From Chloroflexota bacterium (GTDB taxonomy: Bacteria > Chloroflexota > Anaerolineae > J102), in contig JAADGC010000132.1 in the NCBI GenBank assembly GCA_013152585.1, positions 1 to 59,593 of the forward strand: DNA of 59,593 bases, in the 5' to 3' direction. Shown here one piece after another: positions 51,023 through 59,096 of this stretch; the first letter of the stretch is position 1, and each line of letters begins with the position of its first letter. A program made the translations under genes and the position numbers. The notes under the pieces were generated by a model, which saw nothing but the letters and a program-made list of their open reading frames with translations, was not told the origin of the DNA and searched no databases.

Positions 51023-52927
51023 TTAACCCACGGCCTCCAGCTCCAGCAACAGGATACTGACAGCCGGGATGGTCGTTTCCGTTTCGGCCCTGGCTCCGTC
51101 ACTATGCAGCCAGGCGCCGGGGGGCAGGGTTGCTGGCTGCGGCCGGGCGCCGACATTGACCAGCACCAGCACGGTGTCGTGCTCAAACTGCCGCTGCACC
51201 ACCCACACGCCTGCCGCCGCTTCCAGGCGCAAGGTGGTCAGATCGCCGTAGACGGTGGCCGGGTGCCGGCGTCGCCAATGCACGAGCTGCTTGAAGGTGG
51301 CGAGTAAGTCGGTGTCTTGCCGGTCGCCCCAGCGCATGGGATGTCGGGATTCTTCGCGATGGGGAGCTTTGGGCCGGGGCTGTGAGAGCCCAACCTCGGT
51401 GCCGTAATAGAGGATGGGGGTGCTCCCCAGCGCCATCATCAGCCCGGCTGCCAGACGTAGCCGCTGTTTATCGCCGTGCAGAATGGACAGGATGCGGTTC
51501 ATGTCGTGATTTTCGAGAAAGGTGGGGCGAGTGAAGTCGGCGGGGAAGTAGCGCTGGCTGCGGATGATGCTGGTGGCAAAGTCCTGGATGCGGCCGGGAT
51601 CATCGCTGCTAAACAGGCGACGCATCTGACGCGTGAAGTTAAAATCGAGACAGCCGTCTAAACGACCCGCATACGTGCGCAGATCGGCGCTGCCCTGGGT
51701 CACTTCGCCCACCAGCCAGCAGTCGGGGTTGACCTGTTTGCAGGCAAGGCGGAATGCTGTCCAGAAATCGTGGCTGGGACCGGCGGCATAGTCCAGCCGG
51801 TAGCCGTCGATCTGAAATTCCCGCAGCCAGTATTGGGCGGCCTCGAGGATGTACGTCCTGGCGTGGGGATGATCGAGATTAAGCTGGGGCATGGTTGGCA
51901 CGTCGAAAAAACAGCGATAGCCGTGTTTGTAGGCGTCGGAAAAGCTGTACCAGTGGCGATAAGGGCTATCGGGATCGTGCAAGGCTTGCTGGAATGGGGC
52001 AAACTGGTCGCTGGTATGACTGGCGACGAAGTCGAGGAGGATGTGCAGGCTCCGGGCATGGGCGGCCTCGATCAGCTCCCGCAGATCATCCTTGCTGCCA
52101 AAATGCCGGGTGACTTCATGGTAGTCGACAACATCGTATCCGTGATAGGTGCGGGTTTCGAAAATGGGCGTGAGCCAGATGGCATCGACGCCCAAGTCGC
52201 TGAGATAGTCGAGGTGTTCCCGGATGCCTGACAAATTCCCACCACAAAACTGGCTCAGACGGGCGGGACGCAAATAGGTGGAGGGGACAGGGGCGAAGCG
52301 ATCGACGAATATCTCATAAACGACGGCTTCGTGTGCCCAGGCGGGCGTCGAGTAAGCATCGATGCTGTAGCCGTAGAGGCCGGGCTTTTCCCTGGTGCCA
52401 TCCAGATTCGCTTCCTGGCTCCATATGCTGAAATCCGGCTCGTGCTGGCGCCAGCCCTGGATGCGGTAACGTACGTGTGTGCCCGGCGCCTGGCCGGGTA
52501 TCTCGCCCTGCCAGATCTCGCCATAATCCCACTGCAGGGGCTGCCACGTGGTGGCCGTTGGCTGGCAGGAAATGGCGATTCCGTGCTCGGCCCGGCCGCG
52601 GTGCCCCCTGGGTTCGCTGCCGTCGTAGGTGACATAAGCGGTGATGTGGTCCACCAGGGTGCCGGGACCCAGGCTGACCGTGATGCGCACGGGCTGATTG
52701 GGCTGGGGACGTAGCGGAGAGATGTTGTGGTTGTGCCGGAGCCCGCACCAGCGGCGGCGCTCGCTGGCTGCGATGCTGTCATCGGCATCGAGGGCGCCAA
52801 ACACAAAATCTTGCATCAAAGCTGTGTTTTTTTCTTGTTTCGATGTCATTTGTCTTGGCAATCCGGTCTTTGCCGCAGGGGCGCCCCTCCCGACATGCGG
52901 GCATGCTTCAAAAGAGCCATTTCGCAT
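51023..52927 (-). CDS. GH13 alpha-amylase-family glycoside hydrolase (neopullulanase/cyclomaltodextrinase-like); start uncertain (52927, 52849 or 52816)
   Basis: GH13 regions: I DFVASH, II DGYRLDYAAG, III WLVGEV, IV FLENHDMNR. Also GVDAIWLTPIFE. Confidence 0.85.
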   Translation of the reverse strand: MRNGSFEACPHVGRGAPAAKTGLPRQMTSKQEKNTALMQDFVFGALDADDSIAASERRRWCGLRHNHNISPLRPQPNQPVRITVSLGPGTLVDHITAYVTYDGSEPRGHRGRAEHGIAISCQPTATTWQPLQWDYGEIWQGEIPGQAPGTHVRYRIQGWRQHEPDFSIWSQEANLDGTREKPGLYGYSIDAYSTPAWAHEAVVYEIFVDRFAPVPSTYLRPARLSQFCGGNLSGIREHLDYLSDLGVDAIWLTPIFETRTYHGYDVVDYHEVTRHFGSKDDLRELIEAAHARSLHILLDFVASHTSDQFAPFQQALHDPDSPYRHWYSFSDAYKHGYRCFFDVPTMPQLNLDHPHARTYILEAAQYWLREFQIDGYRLDYAAGPSHDFWTAFRLACKQVNPDCWLVGEVTQGSADLRTYAGRLDGCLDFNFTRQMRRLFSSDDPGRIQDFATSIIRSQRYFPADFTRPTFLENHDMNRILSILHGDKQRLRLAAGLMMALGSTPILYYGTEVGLSQPRPKAPHREESRHPMRWGDRQDTDLLATFKQLVHWRRRHPATVYGDLTTLRLEAAAGVWVVQRQFEHDTVLVLVNVGARPQPATLPPGAWLHSDGARAETETTIPAVSILLLELEAVG

Positions 52928-52940
52928 CGTGACACGAGTA

Positions 52941-53828
52941 CTATCCTTTCACAGCGCCGACTGTCAAGCCGCTTTGCAACTGGTCTTGCACAAAATAGAA
53001 GAGGATGAGGGTGGGGATGGCAGCCATGAGGGCGCCGGCAGCGAAAGGCCCCCAGTTTTGTGAGAAGCGGCCACTGACAAAAAGGCTCAGGCCCACAGCC
53101 AGCGTGAAGTGGTTGATGTCTTTGAGCATGACGCGGGCCAGCAGGTAGTCGCCATAGGTGCCGATGAAGGTGAGGATGAAGATGACGACGAGGATGGGCC
53201 GCACCAGCGGCAGAATGATATAGAGGAAGGTCTGCATCGAAGAAGCGCCGTCCATGTGGGCCGATTCGTCCAAATCACGGGGAATCGAGTCGAAAAAGCC
53301 TTTCATCAGCCAGGTGTTAAAGCCCATGGCCCCGCCCATGTAGATGAGGATGAGCCCGCCCAGCGAGTCGATGCCCACGATAGGATAGTACTGGCCCAAT
53401 TGCCGCAAAATGAGAAACAGGGCGACAATGGCGAGGATGTTGGGGAAGACCTGGGCCAGGAGAATGGTCTTGAGCAGGGGTTGGCGGCCGCGGAAGCGAA
53501 AGCGTGAGAAGGCGTAAGCAGCAAAAGAGGTGATGCTCACCACCAGCACCGATGTGGTGAGCGACACAAACAGCGAGTTGCGCATCCACAGCAGGAAGGG
53601 GGTGTTCCCGTCGGTATTCTTGAGAATTTGCACGTAATGGTCGAAGTTGGCGCCCGCGGGAATGAGGTTGCGGCTGGCGATGGAGCTGGCGGGGTTGATC
53701 GAGGCGGAGAAGATGTAAATAACGGGCAGCAGGGCAAAGGCGATGGCCAGAAAGGACACGGCCATGCGCCAGGCAATCGAAATGCGTTTTTGACGCCGCA
53801 GAGAAGCGATTCGGGTGCTGCTAGACAT
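52941..53828 (-). CDS. Maltodextrin-type ABC permease, MalG-like
   Basis: EAA loop ESAHMDGASSMQTFLYIILPLVRP. ATG 53828 lies 2 nt after the upstream stop. Confidence 0.85.
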   Translation of the reverse strand: MSSSTRIASLRRQKRISIAWRMAVSFLAIAFALLPVIYIFSASINPASSIASRNLIPAGANFDHYVQILKNTDGNTPFLLWMRNSLFVSLTTSVLVVSITSFAAYAFSRFRFRGRQPLLKTILLAQVFPNILAIVALFLILRQLGQYYPIVGIDSLGGLILIYMGGAMGFNTWLMKGFFDSIPRDLDESAHMDGASSMQTFLYIILPLVRPILVVIFILTFIGTYGDYLLARVMLKDINHFTLAVGLSLFVSGRFSQNWGPFAAGALMAAIPTLILFYFVQDQLQSGLTVGAVKG

Positions 53829-55407
53829 TTTCGGACACCTCCTCCAACATGCCTGTGTAGCGGAAATTGAACAAGGTGATGGCGGCAACGACAATGAAGA
53901 TGAGGATGGCGATGGCCGATGCCAGGCCATAATCGGCGCCGCGACCCCCGGCAAAGGCCAGGCGGTAGGTGTAACTGATGAGGATGTCGGTGTGCCCGGC
54001 CGGCGTGGGGGTGCCGCTCATGGGCGGGCCGCCACGGTTGTAGAGATCGATGATGGTGAAGTTGTTGAAGTTAAAGGCAAAAGAACCCACCAACAGCGGG
54101 CCAACAGAAATCAGCAGCAAGGGCAGCGTGATGCGCCAGAATTGATTGAAGCCGTTGGCGCCATCCACGATTGCTGCTTCGTAGATATCTCGGGGGATGG
54201 CTTGCAGGGCGCCGGTGGTGATCAGGAACATGTAGGGAAAGCCCAACCACAGATTCACGATCAGGATGCCGATCTTGGCCCAAAGCGCATCGGTGAACCA
54301 GCCCGGATTCCAGGTGGTGCCGATAATGCCCAGGATGGGGTTGAACATGCCGCGCCAGATAAGAACGCTGATAAAGGCGGGCAGTGCATAGGGCACGATC
54401 AGGAGCACGCGCATAGGGCGGCGCCAGGGCAAATCTTCGGTGTTGAGCACCAGCGCCAGGAACAACCCCAGGGCAAAGGTGAGCAAAACGCTGAAGAACG
54501 CATAGCTAAACGTCCAGACGAAGATACTGATAAAAGGGCCGCGCAACTGGGGGCTTGTGAAGATGCGCTTGAAGTTCAAGAACCCGACCGACGTGGGGAA
54601 ACCCGGACGCAGGATGTCGCCATCGGCGGCCGTAAACGTGCCGTCCACGGACGCATACACCTTGCCCGTGGATTGGTCGATCATGGCGTCTGCCGCCGCA
54701 TCATAGACGTAGCGTTGTTGGAGCTGGGCGGCTTCTTTGAGCGATTTTACCTGCACAGCACCGATTTCGGGGCCGAACTTCTGCCCTTGCAAGTCGGCCA
54801 GGGCTTTGAACAGTTCCTTCTTCCCCAGGCGTTTGTAACCGGCGATGGTGGTGGGAATGTTGTTTTCGTCTAACGGTCCCAAGCCCAGGACCTGCCCGGG
54901 GCTGAGGAAGGGCTCACCGGGTTTGGCGAAGTAGGCGACGCCATCTTTGCCCTGTAGCCATAAGGCGTACTGCCCGTCGGCTGAGCGGAAGCCAGTCCAG
55001 GTGAAGACCTGGGCGTTTTCGGGCAGATATTGTTGGGCTTCGAGCTGGCGGATGGCCAGCGGCTTTTCGATGAGATGGCCGTCCCCGTAGTTGGTAAAGG
55101 CGGTGTAGGCGGTAAAGAGGACGGGATAAATGTGCAGCAGTAGCATGAAAGCCAGCCCCGGAGCAATCCAGCGCAGGGGCATGGCTGCGCCACGCAAAAA
55201 GACGATGTTGATGAAGAGAAGAACGATGGCAAGGGCGGCTGCAAGGGTACCAGCACCGTCGAAGATGAATCGGTAGACCAGCCAGATGCCCCAGGCGTCC
55301 AACAAAGACAGGAGGCCCAGGCGCAAAAGGAGGGCAGGGAGGTTGTTTGCCAGGGAGGAGAGGGGGCGCAAAGGCCCCCCCTCGTTTCTGGCTGTCTTGG
55401 CAGCCAT
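53821..55407 (-). CDS. Maltodextrin-type ABC permease, MalF-like with a large extracytoplasmic loop
   Basis: 528 aa. EAA loop EAAIVDGANGFNQFWRITLPLL, with a long non-hydrophobic loop between early TM helices, as in MalF. Confidence 0.85.
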   Translation of the reverse strand: MAAKTARNEGGPLRPLSSLANNLPALLLRLGLLSLLDAWGIWLVYRFIFDGAGTLAAALAIVLLFINIVFLRGAAMPLRWIAPGLAFMLLLHIYPVLFTAYTAFTNYGDGHLIEKPLAIRQLEAQQYLPENAQVFTWTGFRSADGQYALWLQGKDGVAYFAKPGEPFLSPGQVLGLGPLDENNIPTTIAGYKRLGKKELFKALADLQGQKFGPEIGAVQVKSLKEAAQLQQRYVYDAAADAMIDQSTGKVYASVDGTFTAADGDILRPGFPTSVGFLNFKRIFTSPQLRGPFISIFVWTFSYAFFSVLLTFALGLFLALVLNTEDLPWRRPMRVLLIVPYALPAFISVLIWRGMFNPILGIIGTTWNPGWFTDALWAKIGILIVNLWLGFPYMFLITTGALQAIPRDIYEAAIVDGANGFNQFWRITLPLLLISVGPLLVGSFAFNFNNFTIIDLYNRGGPPMSGTPTPAGHTDILISYTYRLAFAGGRGADYGLASAIAILIFIVVAAITLFNFRYTGMLEEVSENV

Positions 55408-55412
55408 GATTA

Positions 55413-57878
55413 TCAGCCTCCAGCAATGGCGGCTCGAATCTGTTCGGCGGCATTCTTGAAGGCGGTGTCAGGCGCTTCGGCTTGGTTGAAGATGAGGGTG
55501 ATGGCGTCGCCCCAGGCGCCCCACACGGCCGACATTTCGGGAATGGCGGGCATGGGCAGGCCGTTGGCACCGGCAGCGGCAAAGGCGGCCAGATCCGGGT
55601 CGTCGATGGCGTCGCGTACAGATACAAAGGCCGAGGGCCGAGGGTCGGCATCGAAGATGGCCTGCATGACTTCGGGGGTGGCGACGAATTCGTTCAGGAA
55701 GGCTTCGGCGAGCAGCTTGTTTTCGCTAAAGGCGCTGACCATGAAGCCCTGTACTCCCAGGAAAGGCTGGGCCTCTTGTGTCTGGCCGGGGATGGGGGCG
55801 ATGGCGTAGGAGATACCGGATTCACGTATCCGCGGCAACGACCAGGGGCCGGAGATCATCATAGCGGCGTCGCCGGATTCGAAGAGCACGTGCATGGTTT
55901 CCCAGTCGACGTCAGCGACGAGATGACCGTCTTTGACCGCCTGATCCAGGAATTCGGCGGCTGCCAGCGAACCAGGGCTGTCGAGGCCCACATCATCGGG
56001 GTTGTAGTTGTTGTTGGCATCCACGCCGAAGACGTAGCCACCAAAGGCGGTCTGGATGGGGAAGAAGTGGTAGGGGTCGCCGGCCTGCATGACCCAACCC
56101 TGCTTGACCTTGCCATCGGCTTCCAGTTGCGACGCCACGGAAATCACCTCATCCCAGGTGGTGGGCGGGGTGGGTACGAGGTCGGGGTTGTAGAAGAAGG
56201 CGACGTTTTCGGTGGCGTAAGGCATGCCGTAGAGCTGGCCTTCATAGCTGAAGGCTTGCACGGCGGCGGGGAGGAAGTCGTCGGGACTGCTGAGTTCGAG
56301 AGGCTCGACGATGCCGCTGGCTACGAGCTCGCCCAACCAGTCGTGGGCGCCGACAAAGATATCGGGGCCTTCGCCGGCGGGGGCGGCCAGTTTTACCTGA
56401 TCACGGATGTCGCCGAAGCCGACTTCCTGTACGGCCACGGTGACGCCGTATTCGTTCTGGAAGTTGGCGGCGACATCCTTCATGACGGGGGCGCGGATAT
56501 TGTCGGCCCAGATCACGAGATCGGCATCGGCACGCGTGAGGGTGGCCGGCTCTTCGGCCACGGGCTCGGGGGTGGGAGTAGGTTCGGGGGCACCGATCGC
56601 CTCCCGCACCTGCGTGGCGGCGTTCTTGAAGGCGGTGTCAGGCGCTTCGGCCTGGTTGAAGATAAGGGTGATGGCGTCGCCCCAGGCGCCCCATACGGCC
56701 GACATTTCGGGAATGGCGGGCATGGGTAGGCCGTTGGCGCCGGCAGCGGCAAAGGCGGCCAGATCCGGGTCGTCGATGGCGTCGCGTACAGATACAAAGG
56801 CCGAGGGCCGGGGATCGGCATCGAAGATGGCCTGCATGACTTTGGGGGTGGCGACGAATTCGTTCAGGAAGGCTTCGGCGAGCAGCTTGTTTTCGCTAAA
56901 GGCGCTGACCATGAAGCCCTGCACTCCCAGGAAGGGCTGGGCCTCTTGCGTCTGGCCGGGGATGGTGGCGATGGCGTAGGAAATGCCGGATTCGCGTATC
57001 CGTGGCAACGACCAGGGGCCGGAGAGCATCATGGCAGCGTCGCCCGATTCGAAGAGTACGTGCATGGTGTCCCAGTCGACGCCAGCGACGAGATGACCGT
57101 CTTTGACCGCCTGATCCAGGAATTCGGCGGCAGCGAGGGAGCCGGCATTATCGAGGCCGACGTCGTTGGGGTTGTAGTTGTTGTCGGCATCCACGCCGAA
57201 GACGTAGCCACCAAAGGCGGTCTGGATGGGGAAGAAGTGGTAGGGGTCACCGGCCTGCATGACCCAGCCCTGTTGGACCTTGCCGTCGGCTTCCAGTTGT
57301 GACGCCACGGCAATCACCTCATCCCAGGTGGTGGGGGGTTCGGGCACGAGGTCGGGGTTGTAGAAGAGGGCGACGTTTTCGGTGGCATAGGGCATGCCGT
57401 AGAGTTGGCCTTCATAGCTGAAGGCTTGTACGGCGGCGGGGAGGAAGTCGCCGGGATTGCTGAGTTCGAGAGGCTCGACGATGCCGCTGGCTACGAGCTC
57501 GCCCAACCAGTCGTGGGCGCCGACAAAGATGTCGGGGCCTTCGCCGGCGGGGGCGGCCAGTTTTACCTGATCACGGATGTCGCCGAAGCCGACTTCCTGC
57601 ACGATTAGTTCCAGGCCGTATTCATCCTGGAAGGATTGGGCCAGATCCCGCAGCACCGGGGCGCGGGTGTCGTCTGCCCAGATGGTCAGTTGCCCGGCTG
57701 GCTTCGCAGGTTCGGGCGTGGCGGTGGGGTTGGGAATGGGAGGCACCGGCGTGTCGGTGGGGACTGTGACCGGTGCTGTGGTGGGGACGGGCGTGGGTTG
57801 GGCTTGGCCGCCACACGCTGCCAATGCCATGGCAGCAATGATGACGACAATCAGAACCATCCAGTTGCGGCGAATCAT
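55413..57878 (-). CDS. Tandem-duplicated maltodextrin-binding lipoprotein (two complete MalE-like SBP domains in one 821-aa chain)
   Basis: Lipobox MALAAC and a Pro/Thr linker. SBP domain A spans about residues 62-433, followed by a PEPTPTPEP linker and SBP domain B (about 452-821). The domains are near-identical in sequence. AAGGAG RBS. Confidence 0.85.
55416..57695. repeat. Direct tandem duplication, period 1170 bp (390 codons), inside the SBP gene
   Basis: For example, CTTGAAGGCGGTGTCAGGCGCTTCGG occurs at both 55455 and 56625. About 990 nt from there onward match with only scattered substitutions. The last 100 nt or so of each unit (the N-terminal 30 or so codons of each domain) are clearly more diverged. 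Confidence 0.85.
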
Positions 57879-57983
57879 GTTTCTTCTCCTTGAGTCGAAA
57901 AAAGAGAGTGATAGGGGTGATAAGACTATGAGCCAGAAGCTGGGTGATGTGGACGAGTGGGAGAGGCGCTTCTGACAGGGGAA

Positions 57984-59015
57984 TCAGAGGGCGGCCGGGG
58001 CTGGCCCGGCCGAAGCACGGATCACGAGATTACAAGGGATGGTCGTTTGAGACGAGGGCATTTCTTCTGCCAGAATACTTTGGATGAGAAGGGATGTTGC
58101 TTTGGCGGCCATCACCGAATAGGGCACATACAACGATGTCAGAGCGGGGCTGGCGTAGGCGGCCAACAAGGAGTCGTTGGTACCGACGACAGACACGTCT
58201 TCGGGGATGCGCAGGTTTTGTTCCTGTAATGACCGCATAATGCCGATGGCCATGAGGTCGTTGGCTGCATAGTAAGCGGTGGGGGCCAATTCGCCCAGGC
58301 GAGACATACGGCGAACAGCCTGTCTGCCGCCATCTTCGACAAAAAAGCCGTAATCTACCCACTCTGGCAGGGGGGAGATGCCAGCTTTTTGCAAAGCGAT
58401 TTGGTAGCCGTGCAGACGTTCTTTCGACACCAGAACGTCGGGATCGCCCCCCACATAGGCGATGCGCTGATGCCCCATGCCCAGCAAGTAGTTGATGACT
58501 TGTTCGGTGTACATGGTGTCACTGCTGTCGACCCAGGCGCACGCCTCATGCGATGGGTCGGGCCTGCCGATGAGGACAAAAGGGGTGGCCTGGTTTTGCA
58601 GGGCCGATATCAGGTCAACGTCGAGGCGGTTGCTGAGCATGACGATGCCGTCGGCCTGCCGAGAGCCCACGATATCGAGGAGTTGGGTGATTTCGTCGGC
58701 ATGGCCATTGCTCCCTGCCACCAGCACCCGGAACCCATATTTAGAGGTTACTTCCAATAGCCCCTGCATCACCTGGGGGAAGAAAACATCTTCGAAATAG
58801 CCCTGGAATGCGTGCGAAACGGCGATGGCAATCGTGTGCGTGCACTGCATGCTCAGGGAGCGCGCAATGGCGTTGGGCTGAAAGCCCAGCTCATCAGCGG
58901 CTGCCAATACGCGTTGCCGCGTGGTATTGCTGATAGTGGGTTTGCCACTGAAAACACGACTGACTGTGCTGGGGTGAACCCCTGCTTTTTCGGCAACGTC
59001 GCGAATGGTCGGCAT
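57984..59015 (-). CDS. LacI-family transcriptional regulator (MalR-like)
   Basis: MPTIRDVAEKAGVHPSTVSRVFSG HTH at ATG 59015 (the ORF-track TTG 59087 would run through the operators). Periplasmic-binding-protein-like sugar domain. Confidence 0.9.
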   Translation of the reverse strand: MPTIRDVAEKAGVHPSTVSRVFSGKPTISNTTRQRVLAAADELGFQPNAIARSLSMQCTHTIAIAVSHAFQGYFEDVFFPQVMQGLLEVTSKYGFRVLVAGSNGHADEITQLLDIVGSRQADGIVMLSNRLDVDLISALQNQATPFVLIGRPDPSHEACAWVDSSDTMYTEQVINYLLGMGHQRIAYVGGDPDVLVSKERLHGYQIALQKAGISPLPEWVDYGFFVEDGGRQAVRRMSRLGELAPTAYYAANDLMAIGIMRSLQEQNLRIPEDVSVVGTNDSLLAAYASPALTSLYVPYSVMAAKATSLLIQSILAEEMPSSQTTIPCNLVIRASAGPAPAAL

Positions 59016-59049
59016 GGAGTTGCTGACTGAGAGAGGACGGGCGTTGTTT

Positions 59050-59063
59050 TGCAACCGCTTGCA
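59050..59063. promoter_or_regulatory. LacI-type operator half-perfect palindrome
   Basis: TGCAACCGCTTGCA, one mismatch from dyad symmetry, 35 nt upstream of the LacI ATG. Confidence 0.55.
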
Positions 59064-59082
59064 CGGCTTATCCGATTGTAAC

Positions 59083-59096
59083 TGCAACCGGTTGCA
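59083..59096. promoter_or_regulatory. LacI-type operator, perfect 14-bp palindrome
   Basis: TGCAACCGGTTGCA fits the TGnAAnCGnTTnCA LacI/CcpA-family operator pattern, with a central CG. Confidence 0.65.

Follow-up and report, generated by a model that had tools for sequence, protein, structure and literature searches.

We analyzed a stretch of 59,593 nucleotides (nt) from a Chloroflexota bacterium of the class Anaerolineae (contig JAADGC010000132.1 of assembly GCA_013152585.1), hereafter the window, in which a malE gene encodes two complete solute-binding protein (SBP) domains of the MalE type in one lipoprotein of 821 amino acids (aa; positions 55413..57878, minus strand). The double malE gene is genuine and intact, and both of its halves are under purifying selection. 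It probably arose through an in-frame duplication of a Thermotoga-like MalE, an old event after which recurrent gene conversion within the gene homogenized the cores of the two halves, and its lipid-anchored product would serve the adjacent MalFG permease. Known kinds of elements are combined here, namely a MalE-type SBP, tandem binding domains and concerted evolution; the case is an unusually clear one of intragenic conversion and involves no new principle.

Anatomy of the double gene and divergence between its units

The translation of the open reading frame (ORF) and its Pfam matches (SBP_bac_8 and SBP_bac_1, 310 and 251 bits, above the gathering scores, two stretches each) define the layout of the product, all of it encoded on the minus strand. 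A hydrophobic N-terminus followed by L-A-A-C22 agrees on motif reading with the lipobox pattern [LVI][ASTVI][GAS]C, and this signal peptide (residues 1-22, 57813..57878) is predicted to be helical at residues 2-21. A Pro/Thr/Ala-rich tether comes next (residues 23-62, 57693..57812; predicted to be disordered), then MalE domain A (residues 63-430, 56589..57692; the first Pfam stretch), an inter-domain linker that begins with a junction motif of ten residues (residues 431-452, 56523..56588) and MalE domain B (residues 453-821, 55416..56522; the second Pfam stretch), before the stop codon at 55413-55415. A Shine-Dalgarno sequence, AAGGAG, is read ~8 nt upstream of the ATG (57879..57895). A preceding sequence-only reading had described the same succession of signal peptide with lipobox, Pro/Thr linker, domain A, linker and domain B in 821 aa, which the translation and Pfam bear out; the peptide strings that it quoted, the PEPTPTPEP linker and the N/S, G/D and K/E substitutions between the domains are all present. 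It had also placed the units exactly 1170 bp apart, and a direct-repeat search returns this very start-to-start spacing. Tandem Repeats Finder reported no repeat at the double malE because the 1170-nt period exceeds its limit (longest period, 500).

Similarity between the two units changes abruptly along their length. Compared in 30-nt blocks at an offset of 1170, the units match at 0.57-0.83 for ~90 nt from their start and at 0.83-1.00 from there to codon 421, with one dip to 0.70 at nt 721-750, before identity falls to 0.57 at the unit end. The N-terminal segment of domain A (codons 63-94, 57597..57692) differs from that of domain B (56427-56522) at 34 of 96 nt (64.6% identity; synonymous divergence, dS, ~0.95), and its ratio of nonsynonymous to synonymous divergence (dN/dS) is 0.39. 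The cores, codons 95-421 in A (56616..57596) and codons 485-811 in B (55446-56426), are 94.1% identical over 981 nt, with 58 differences of which 15 change a residue (dS 0.206, dN 0.022, dN/dS 0.11). The step in identity at codon 94/95 is significant (P = 2×10−15, Fisher's exact test). These dN/dS and sliding-window comparisons agree with the earlier remark that the first ~30 residues of each domain are much more diverged than the rest; the near-identical stretch that it had put at ~990 bp is present, its length being 981 bp. It had left unmentioned that the last 9-10 codons of each unit are also diverged (13 differences in 27 nt). Within the core, 14 differences are clustered in 60 nt around codons 232-249 of domain A (P = 0.0004). 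An identical run of 78 nt, the longest in the core, is within chance expectation (P = 0.36) and hence gives no hint of a very recent sub-tract in the window genome.

The low dN/dS between the halves is matched in comparisons with G001, a sister species (Chloroflexota bacterium isolate Dive96_bin3.165), where the orthologous domains show dN/dS of 0.09 (A) and 0.095 (B). A gene that is intact in both halves, as the sequence-only reading had argued, is thus borne out by dN/dS of 0.11 within the window and of 0.09-0.10 for each pair of orthologs. The in-frame A|B junction, which consists of a domain end lacking a stop codon, a unique linker and a new domain start, was found in independent assemblies. 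P0001 (ENA) is an 821-aa double with 96% identity to the window protein, P0002 (JGI) an 822-aa double with 58-60% identity and P0004 (NCBI) an 814-aa double with 44% identity, and the genome G089 from another family bears an 831-aa double with 65% identity. A contig of G001 (L007/L038) bridges domain A, the linker and half of domain B and then stops inside the repeat, while the C-terminal end of the double and malF sit on a separate contig. Four proteins of "500 aa" (P0003, P0005, P0008 and P0063) begin inside the end of one domain and run through a linker into a full domain; because of this start, they are most readily taken as doubles cut by assembly or gene calling. Short-read assemblies break in the repeat (G001 L007/L038, L018), and gene callers then give "500-aa" proteins from an internal Met. 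Such breaks and truncated calls (the four proteins above and G001) suggest that tandem SBPs are systematically under-counted in metagenome catalogues.

History and distribution of the duplication

We compared four DNA sequences, the A and B units of the window and of G001, over 206 codons. In the first 31 codons, orthologs (A with A, B with B) are 85% identical between the window and G001, whereas paralogs are 65-71% identical. The cores show the opposite relationship: paralogs share 93% identity in the window and 91% in G001, whereas all four pairs between genomes, orthologs included, share 82-84%. Synonymous sites follow the same pattern, with a core dS of 0.21 and 0.37 between paralogs and of 0.76-1.02 between genomes. 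Among the parsimony-informative sites of the four sequences, 15 support orthology and 1 supports concerted evolution in the first 93 nt, whereas the ratio after the first 93 nt is 7:46 (P = 4×10−9, Fisher's exact test). The C-terminal tails and the linker are also orthologous between the window and G001. It is worth noting that four of the seven core sites favoring orthology (523-546) fall in the internal island of clustered differences, and the conversion tracts are therefore patchy. Because the ends group by ortholog and the cores by genome, the duplication is older than the split between the two species, with the cores homogenized later in each lineage. Paralogs that are closer than orthologs even at synonymous sites, a duplication that predates speciation and a tract structure with sharp boundaries together indicate that the homogenization of the cores is gene conversion, that is, concerted evolution within one reading frame. 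The duplication predates the genus and probably the family as well.

Other doubles show the same structure. In P0001 the two cores are identical at the protein level from about residue 95 to 420, with unconverted ends as in the window; the core of P0001 corresponds to the B type of the window and so suggests that B has recently converted A. In G089 the units are offset by 1176 nt and are 100% identical over 900 nt, with ends of 85-93% identity, so that the pattern of diverged ends recurs in a double from another family. An edge effect of conversion accounts better for the diverged ends than selection for different N-termini does, since tracts cannot enter non-homologous flanks and ends that have diverged block further tracts. 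The N-terminal segments themselves are under purifying selection in the ortholog comparison (dN/dS 0.12-0.14).

Two other explanations for the doubled gene have to be weighed. That assembly wrongly made two units out of one malE, or joined the sequences of two strains, is extremely improbable. The window genome is a 251-contig assembly resembling a metagenome-assembled genome, and ~1-kb repeats do break short-read assemblies, as in G001 and in the run X1 described below; however, an erroneous duplication would be expected to show identical copies or errors at random, and here the 58 core differences are mostly synonymous with a coding-like pattern, the ends are distinct, and the junction recurs in at least six independent assemblies at 44-96% identity. 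Raw data speak less clearly for the double. The sole public run found, X1 from a marine sediment metagenome, gave contigs of a relative with 96-97% identity that break inside the repeat; no piece spans it, and they neither prove nor disprove two copies in the window assembly. One repeat piece in this run has a depth of 35.9 against 21.7 and 23.4 in its flanks, a weak indication of two collapsed copies in that relative, and no relevant contigs were found in runs X2 and X3. A recent, lineage-specific duplication free of conversion, with the odd N-terminal segments acquired separately (e.g., by recombination with another malE), is somewhat easier to imagine and still very unlikely. Tandem duplications are frequent, and the whole-domain tree pairs A with B in every double, as independent duplications also would. 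Yet G001 has matching A-type and B-type N-terminal segments, C-terminal tails and linker that are orthologous to those of the window, and in its cores A and B share changes specific to that species; without conversion, the gene would have had to be duplicated twice independently, with the same boundaries and junctions each time, and the junction motif is also present in proteins of only 58-72% identity. The sequence-only reading had left open a recent duplication or an older one homogenized by gene conversion; the ends and cores of the window and G001 favor the latter and disfavor the former.

Whether the doubles of different lineages share one origin is less certain. In a tree of 67 domains, from which G089 was left out, doubles occupy five or six positions among singles, in the groupings of the window genus with P0003, P0002 with P0008, P0005 with P0063, and P0004. 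Among ~135 relatives, the motif APEPTP.PE was found five times, in each case at the A|B junction of a double (window, P0002, P0003, P0005 and G089; four tree lineages), with near-variants in P0001 and G001, and it was never seen in the N-terminal tethers of singles among these relatives. Such a junction motif confined to the doubles of four lineages argues for one ancestral double, and it is likely, though not proven, that an original double later underwent conversion and that its descendants repeatedly lost one unit or were transferred. The single MalE L008 (G007), sister to P0003 in the tree, has a short N-terminal segment of mixed appearance, B-like first (LVIWAD.TRAPVM) and A-like later (YGIELVVQE), which might be left over from the reduction of a double to a single by recombination.

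Doubles are a recurrent minority. In the window's own genome, this double is the only close MalE, and the eight genomes of the family's other genera with a match have an ortholog that is single, with the same LacI-malE-malF order where inspected. Nine of the best 120 homologs are doubles, and the best 150 cluster representatives at 50% identity are mostly singles. No double was found among 80 metagenome loci fetched with the junction peptide, although seeds of the exact peptide miss diverged junctions. Across the class, 16 of 301 genomes have some double SBP (G000, G089 and fourteen others). In the fourteen, which belong to eight families, the ~800-aa doubles are of another SBP_bac_1/8 subfamily with 28-32% identity to the window protein, and their halves are 78-95% identical in a mosaic of 100% blocks beside 60-80% blocks, which suggests the same conversion process in an unrelated double. 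Doubles of this second subfamily are seen at L016, L017 and L029-L037 (G033, G038, G077, G284, G237, G147, G167, G071, G134, G207 and G209); at L031, L034 and L037 antisense shadow ORFs were picked, and their linker strings were not used. Three proteins of ~1,560-1,600 aa (P0241, P0246 and P0267) have four MalE-like stretches each, and Pfam confirms four tandem SBP_bac_8/SBP_bac_1 domains, a quadruple binding protein, in P0241. The comparison of single and double versions among relatives thus found both forms, and the earlier view that tandem fusions are rare for MalE-type proteins holds in so far as doubles are a minority, but they recur in the class and quadruples exist. A literature search for free SBP-SBP doubles gave nothing relevant, an absence that is no proof of novelty.

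Binding domains of this kind are found in other combinations as well. In P0014, P0022, P0113, P0053 and P0142 a MalE domain is fused to a LivJ-like Peripla_BP_6 or a ribose-type Peripla_BP_4 domain, with an additional pullulanase X25 module in P0142. P0053 has a MalE domain almost the same in sequence as head A of the double P0002, and close relatives therefore carry different second heads. In P0150, P0143, P0131 and P0138 a MalE-like domain lies C-terminal to Ser/Thr kinases, to a large WD40-repeat protein and to a protein with a weak subtilase match; in these proteins such domains presumably act as sensor modules. A 1043-aa open frame in G149 was considered as a MalE-MalF fusion and ruled out, as it is a normal malE, a stop and then malF.

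Structure and probable equivalence of the two heads

The AlphaFold2 model, built from a 32-row alignment, has a predicted local distance difference test score (pLDDT) >90 in both domains and <50 in the tether (residues 22-60) and the linker (residues 435-445), with a predicted template modeling score of 0.51. This score and the disordered linkers suggest two independent beads on a flexible string, and the product would run from its anchor through the ~40-aa tether to head A and through the ~20-aa linker to head B. The best Foldseek matches are the maltotetraose- and maltotriose-bound MalE2 and MalE1 of Thermotoga maritima (TM 0.87-0.89), with maltotetraose-bound forms fitting best; among solved natural proteins in the PDB, the closest in sequence are T. 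maritima MalE1 (314 bits, a match of domain B) and MalE2 (292 bits), and E. coli MalE scores 189 bits. The T. maritima proteins (PDB 2GHA, 6DTU, 6DTS and 2FNC) and E. coli MalE share fold and family with the window heads, but they are single-domain proteins, whereas the window protein has two complete domains in one lipoprotein.

Pocket positions were mapped through a HMMER alignment to E. coli MalE. The core positions aligned with Glu44, Trp62, Asp65, Arg66, Glu111, Glu153-Pro154-Tyr155, Trp230 and Trp340-Tyr341, which are pocket residues of the E. coli protein, are identical in A and B. Several positions that contact the ligand in E. coli carry other residues in the window heads, as in Thermotoga (W62 to G, R66 to W and Y341 to G). 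The only near-cleft differences between A and B are at the equivalents of Gly13/Asp14, D70-T71 in A and N460-I461 in B. The T71/I461 difference is unique to the window strain, as P0001 and G001 have T in both heads, and the corresponding loop is the same in both heads of G089, P0002 and P0004; neither D70/N460 nor T71/I461 recurs in the other doubles. Because the mapped pocket positions are identical and ortholog dN/dS is equally low for A and B, both heads are maintained, and they are probably equivalent. The suggestion of the sequence-only reading that they have two slightly different specificities finds no support in these positions.

Sub-functionalized heads, differing in ligand range, affinity or docking role and kept distinct in their N-terminal segments by selection, are nevertheless an alternative that we regard as unlikely rather than negligible. 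The unconverted segment holds the loop aligned with Gly13-Asp14-Lys15 of E. coli MalE, DTR in A and NIR in B; Asp14 and Lys15 contact the sugar in E. coli. The segment also has the higher dN/dS between A and B given above (0.39 against 0.11 in the core), and the tandem substrate-binding domains (SBDs) of GlnPQ show that such domains can differ in specificity (PMC8025302). Outside this loop, however, the mapped pocket positions do not differ between A and B, the T/I difference is private to the window strain and the loop is uniform between heads in the three more distant doubles; each N-terminal segment is conserved by purifying selection between orthologs, and divergence at the ends is expected from an edge effect of conversion. 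Nothing specific favors the idea that one head is a non-binding spacer or a copy in decay whose sole effect is to lengthen the other's reach, except that a second domain could in principle act as a stalk. Since both heads keep the mapped conserved pocket residues, fold with pLDDT >90 and have equally low ortholog dN/dS, and since a copy in decay would be restored again and again by conversion anyway, this idea is hardly credible, and we retain two maintained and probably equivalent heads.

Operon, likely substrate and proposed function

The double malE lies in an operon of the order LacI-malE(x2)-malF-malG-GH13, all on the minus strand. A MalF-type permease with a large external loop (53821..55407; Pfam BPD_transp_1 and TM_PBP2_N) starts 5 nt after the malE stop, and a MalG-type permease (52941..53828; BPD_transp_1) starts at an ATG overlapping the malF stop. 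The last gene encodes an enzyme of the alpha-amylase family GH13 (51023..52927; Pfam Alpha-amylase and DUF3459), whose nearest NCBIfam models, cyclomaltodextrinase and maltodextrin glucosidase, both score far below cut-off. The enzyme lies well under the equivalog cut-offs of all NCBIfam models, and its activity may be either of these two or another. NCBIfam MalE (NF007011) is the best-scoring model for both halves of the double, with 252.8 bits for domain A and 256.4 bits for domain B. From these MalE matches and the MalF, MalG and GH13 neighbors, maltodextrin-type alpha-glucan oligosaccharides are the likely substrate.

These results are most probably explained as follows. The double MalE would serve the MalFG-type importer of the ATP-binding cassette (ABC) class encoded just downstream, beside the GH13 enzyme. 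Recurrent intragenic conversion would keep the ~980-nt cores of both heads nearly identical, while ~31 codons at the start, ~10 at the end and a small island within the core are not converted and retain the original differences between A and B. Each head may bind the alpha-glucan oligosaccharides that the other binds, and the two may take turns in docking on MalFG, by analogy with the tandem SBDs of GlnPQ, which would give two binding sites per anchored molecule, with possible avidity for long dextrins or a hand-over from the distal to the proximal head. Homogenization might be tolerated or favored because both heads must fit the same permease surface.

Besides the uninformative run X1, several points weigh against parts of this explanation. 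Each MalE domain alone falls below the NCBIfam equivalog cut-off (291 bits), and the whole protein (507 bits) exceeds it only as the sum of two domains. MalF (387.4 bits against a cut-off of 392) and MalG (239.4 against 261) are likewise just below theirs, so the substrate could be another oligosaccharide, and JGI names relatives "arabinogalactan oligomer/maltooligosaccharide". The 100%-identical cores of P0001 and G089 could partly reflect assembler behavior and not very recent conversion. The single origin, likely but not proven as stated, depends on a short junction motif of low complexity; P0004, P0008 and P0063 have other linkers, and some of these doubles may be independent events. Avidity and hand-over are pure inference.

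A wider proposal, which seems possible but doubtful to us, is that the two-headed architecture is long-lived and selected, with one origin marked by APEPTPxPE, presence in at least two families and cooperating heads, and that multi-headed SBPs are a routine and undescribed uptake strategy of Chloroflexota. If so, one long alpha-glucan might be bound bivalently at the cell surface, or the distal head might pass substrate on to the proximal one; the match of both heads to a single docking surface on MalFG would be kept up by conversion within the gene, and Chloroflexota would build double, quadruple and mixed SBP lipoproteins. Models of ABC importers assume one binding protein per docking event, and GlnPQ is to our knowledge the only well-studied multi-head case, with heads that are fused to the permease and have different specificities. 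The double MalE is thus a natural case in which to study what is gained by a second identical head, be it site density, avidity for polymers or reach, and it illustrates cleanly how concerted evolution acts within a bacterial gene, with the ends of the tracts mapped.

The likeness to GlnPQ of Lactococcus lactis (SBD1-SBD2) lies in two binding domains joined by a flexible linker in one polypeptide that serves one translocator (PMC8025302). In GlnPQ the tandem SBDs provide more binding sites, and the domains compete for docking (PMC8025302). The SBDs of GlnPQ, however, are of the amino-acid-binding class, form one polypeptide with the membrane domain and are unlike each other in specificity and affinity, whereas the window double is a separate lipoprotein of the carbohydrate class with heads of 90% identity and malF as a separate ORF. 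Concertedly evolving paralogs are known in prokaryotes, e.g., tufA/tufB and mtrA, and for those that work in one complex an argument parallel to that of the shared permease surface has been made (PMC6053082). As in tufA/tufB and mtrA, the paralogs within a genome are closer than orthologs, synonymous sites included, and flanking features show an old duplication; those are separate genes, whereas donor and acceptor here are halves of one reading frame with unconverted ends and an island. Compared with other multi-SBP lipoproteins, the window double stands in a complete mal operon, has a sister species that allows a direct test of conversion and bears a junction motif linking lineages.

At the head of the operon, a LacI-family regulator (57984..59087, minus strand; Pfam LacI and Peripla_BP_3/1) is given as the longest ORF, and its true start may be an ATG near 59015. 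Its NCBIfam matches are to LacI-family models only, none above cut-off. No obvious palindrome was seen in the 105-nt spacer between this gene and malE (57879-57983), which contains the strong AAGGAG. The same LacI-family regulator precedes malE in relatives. At the other end of the operon, the GH13 enzyme has ~200 extra N-terminal residues ahead of its catalytic domain.

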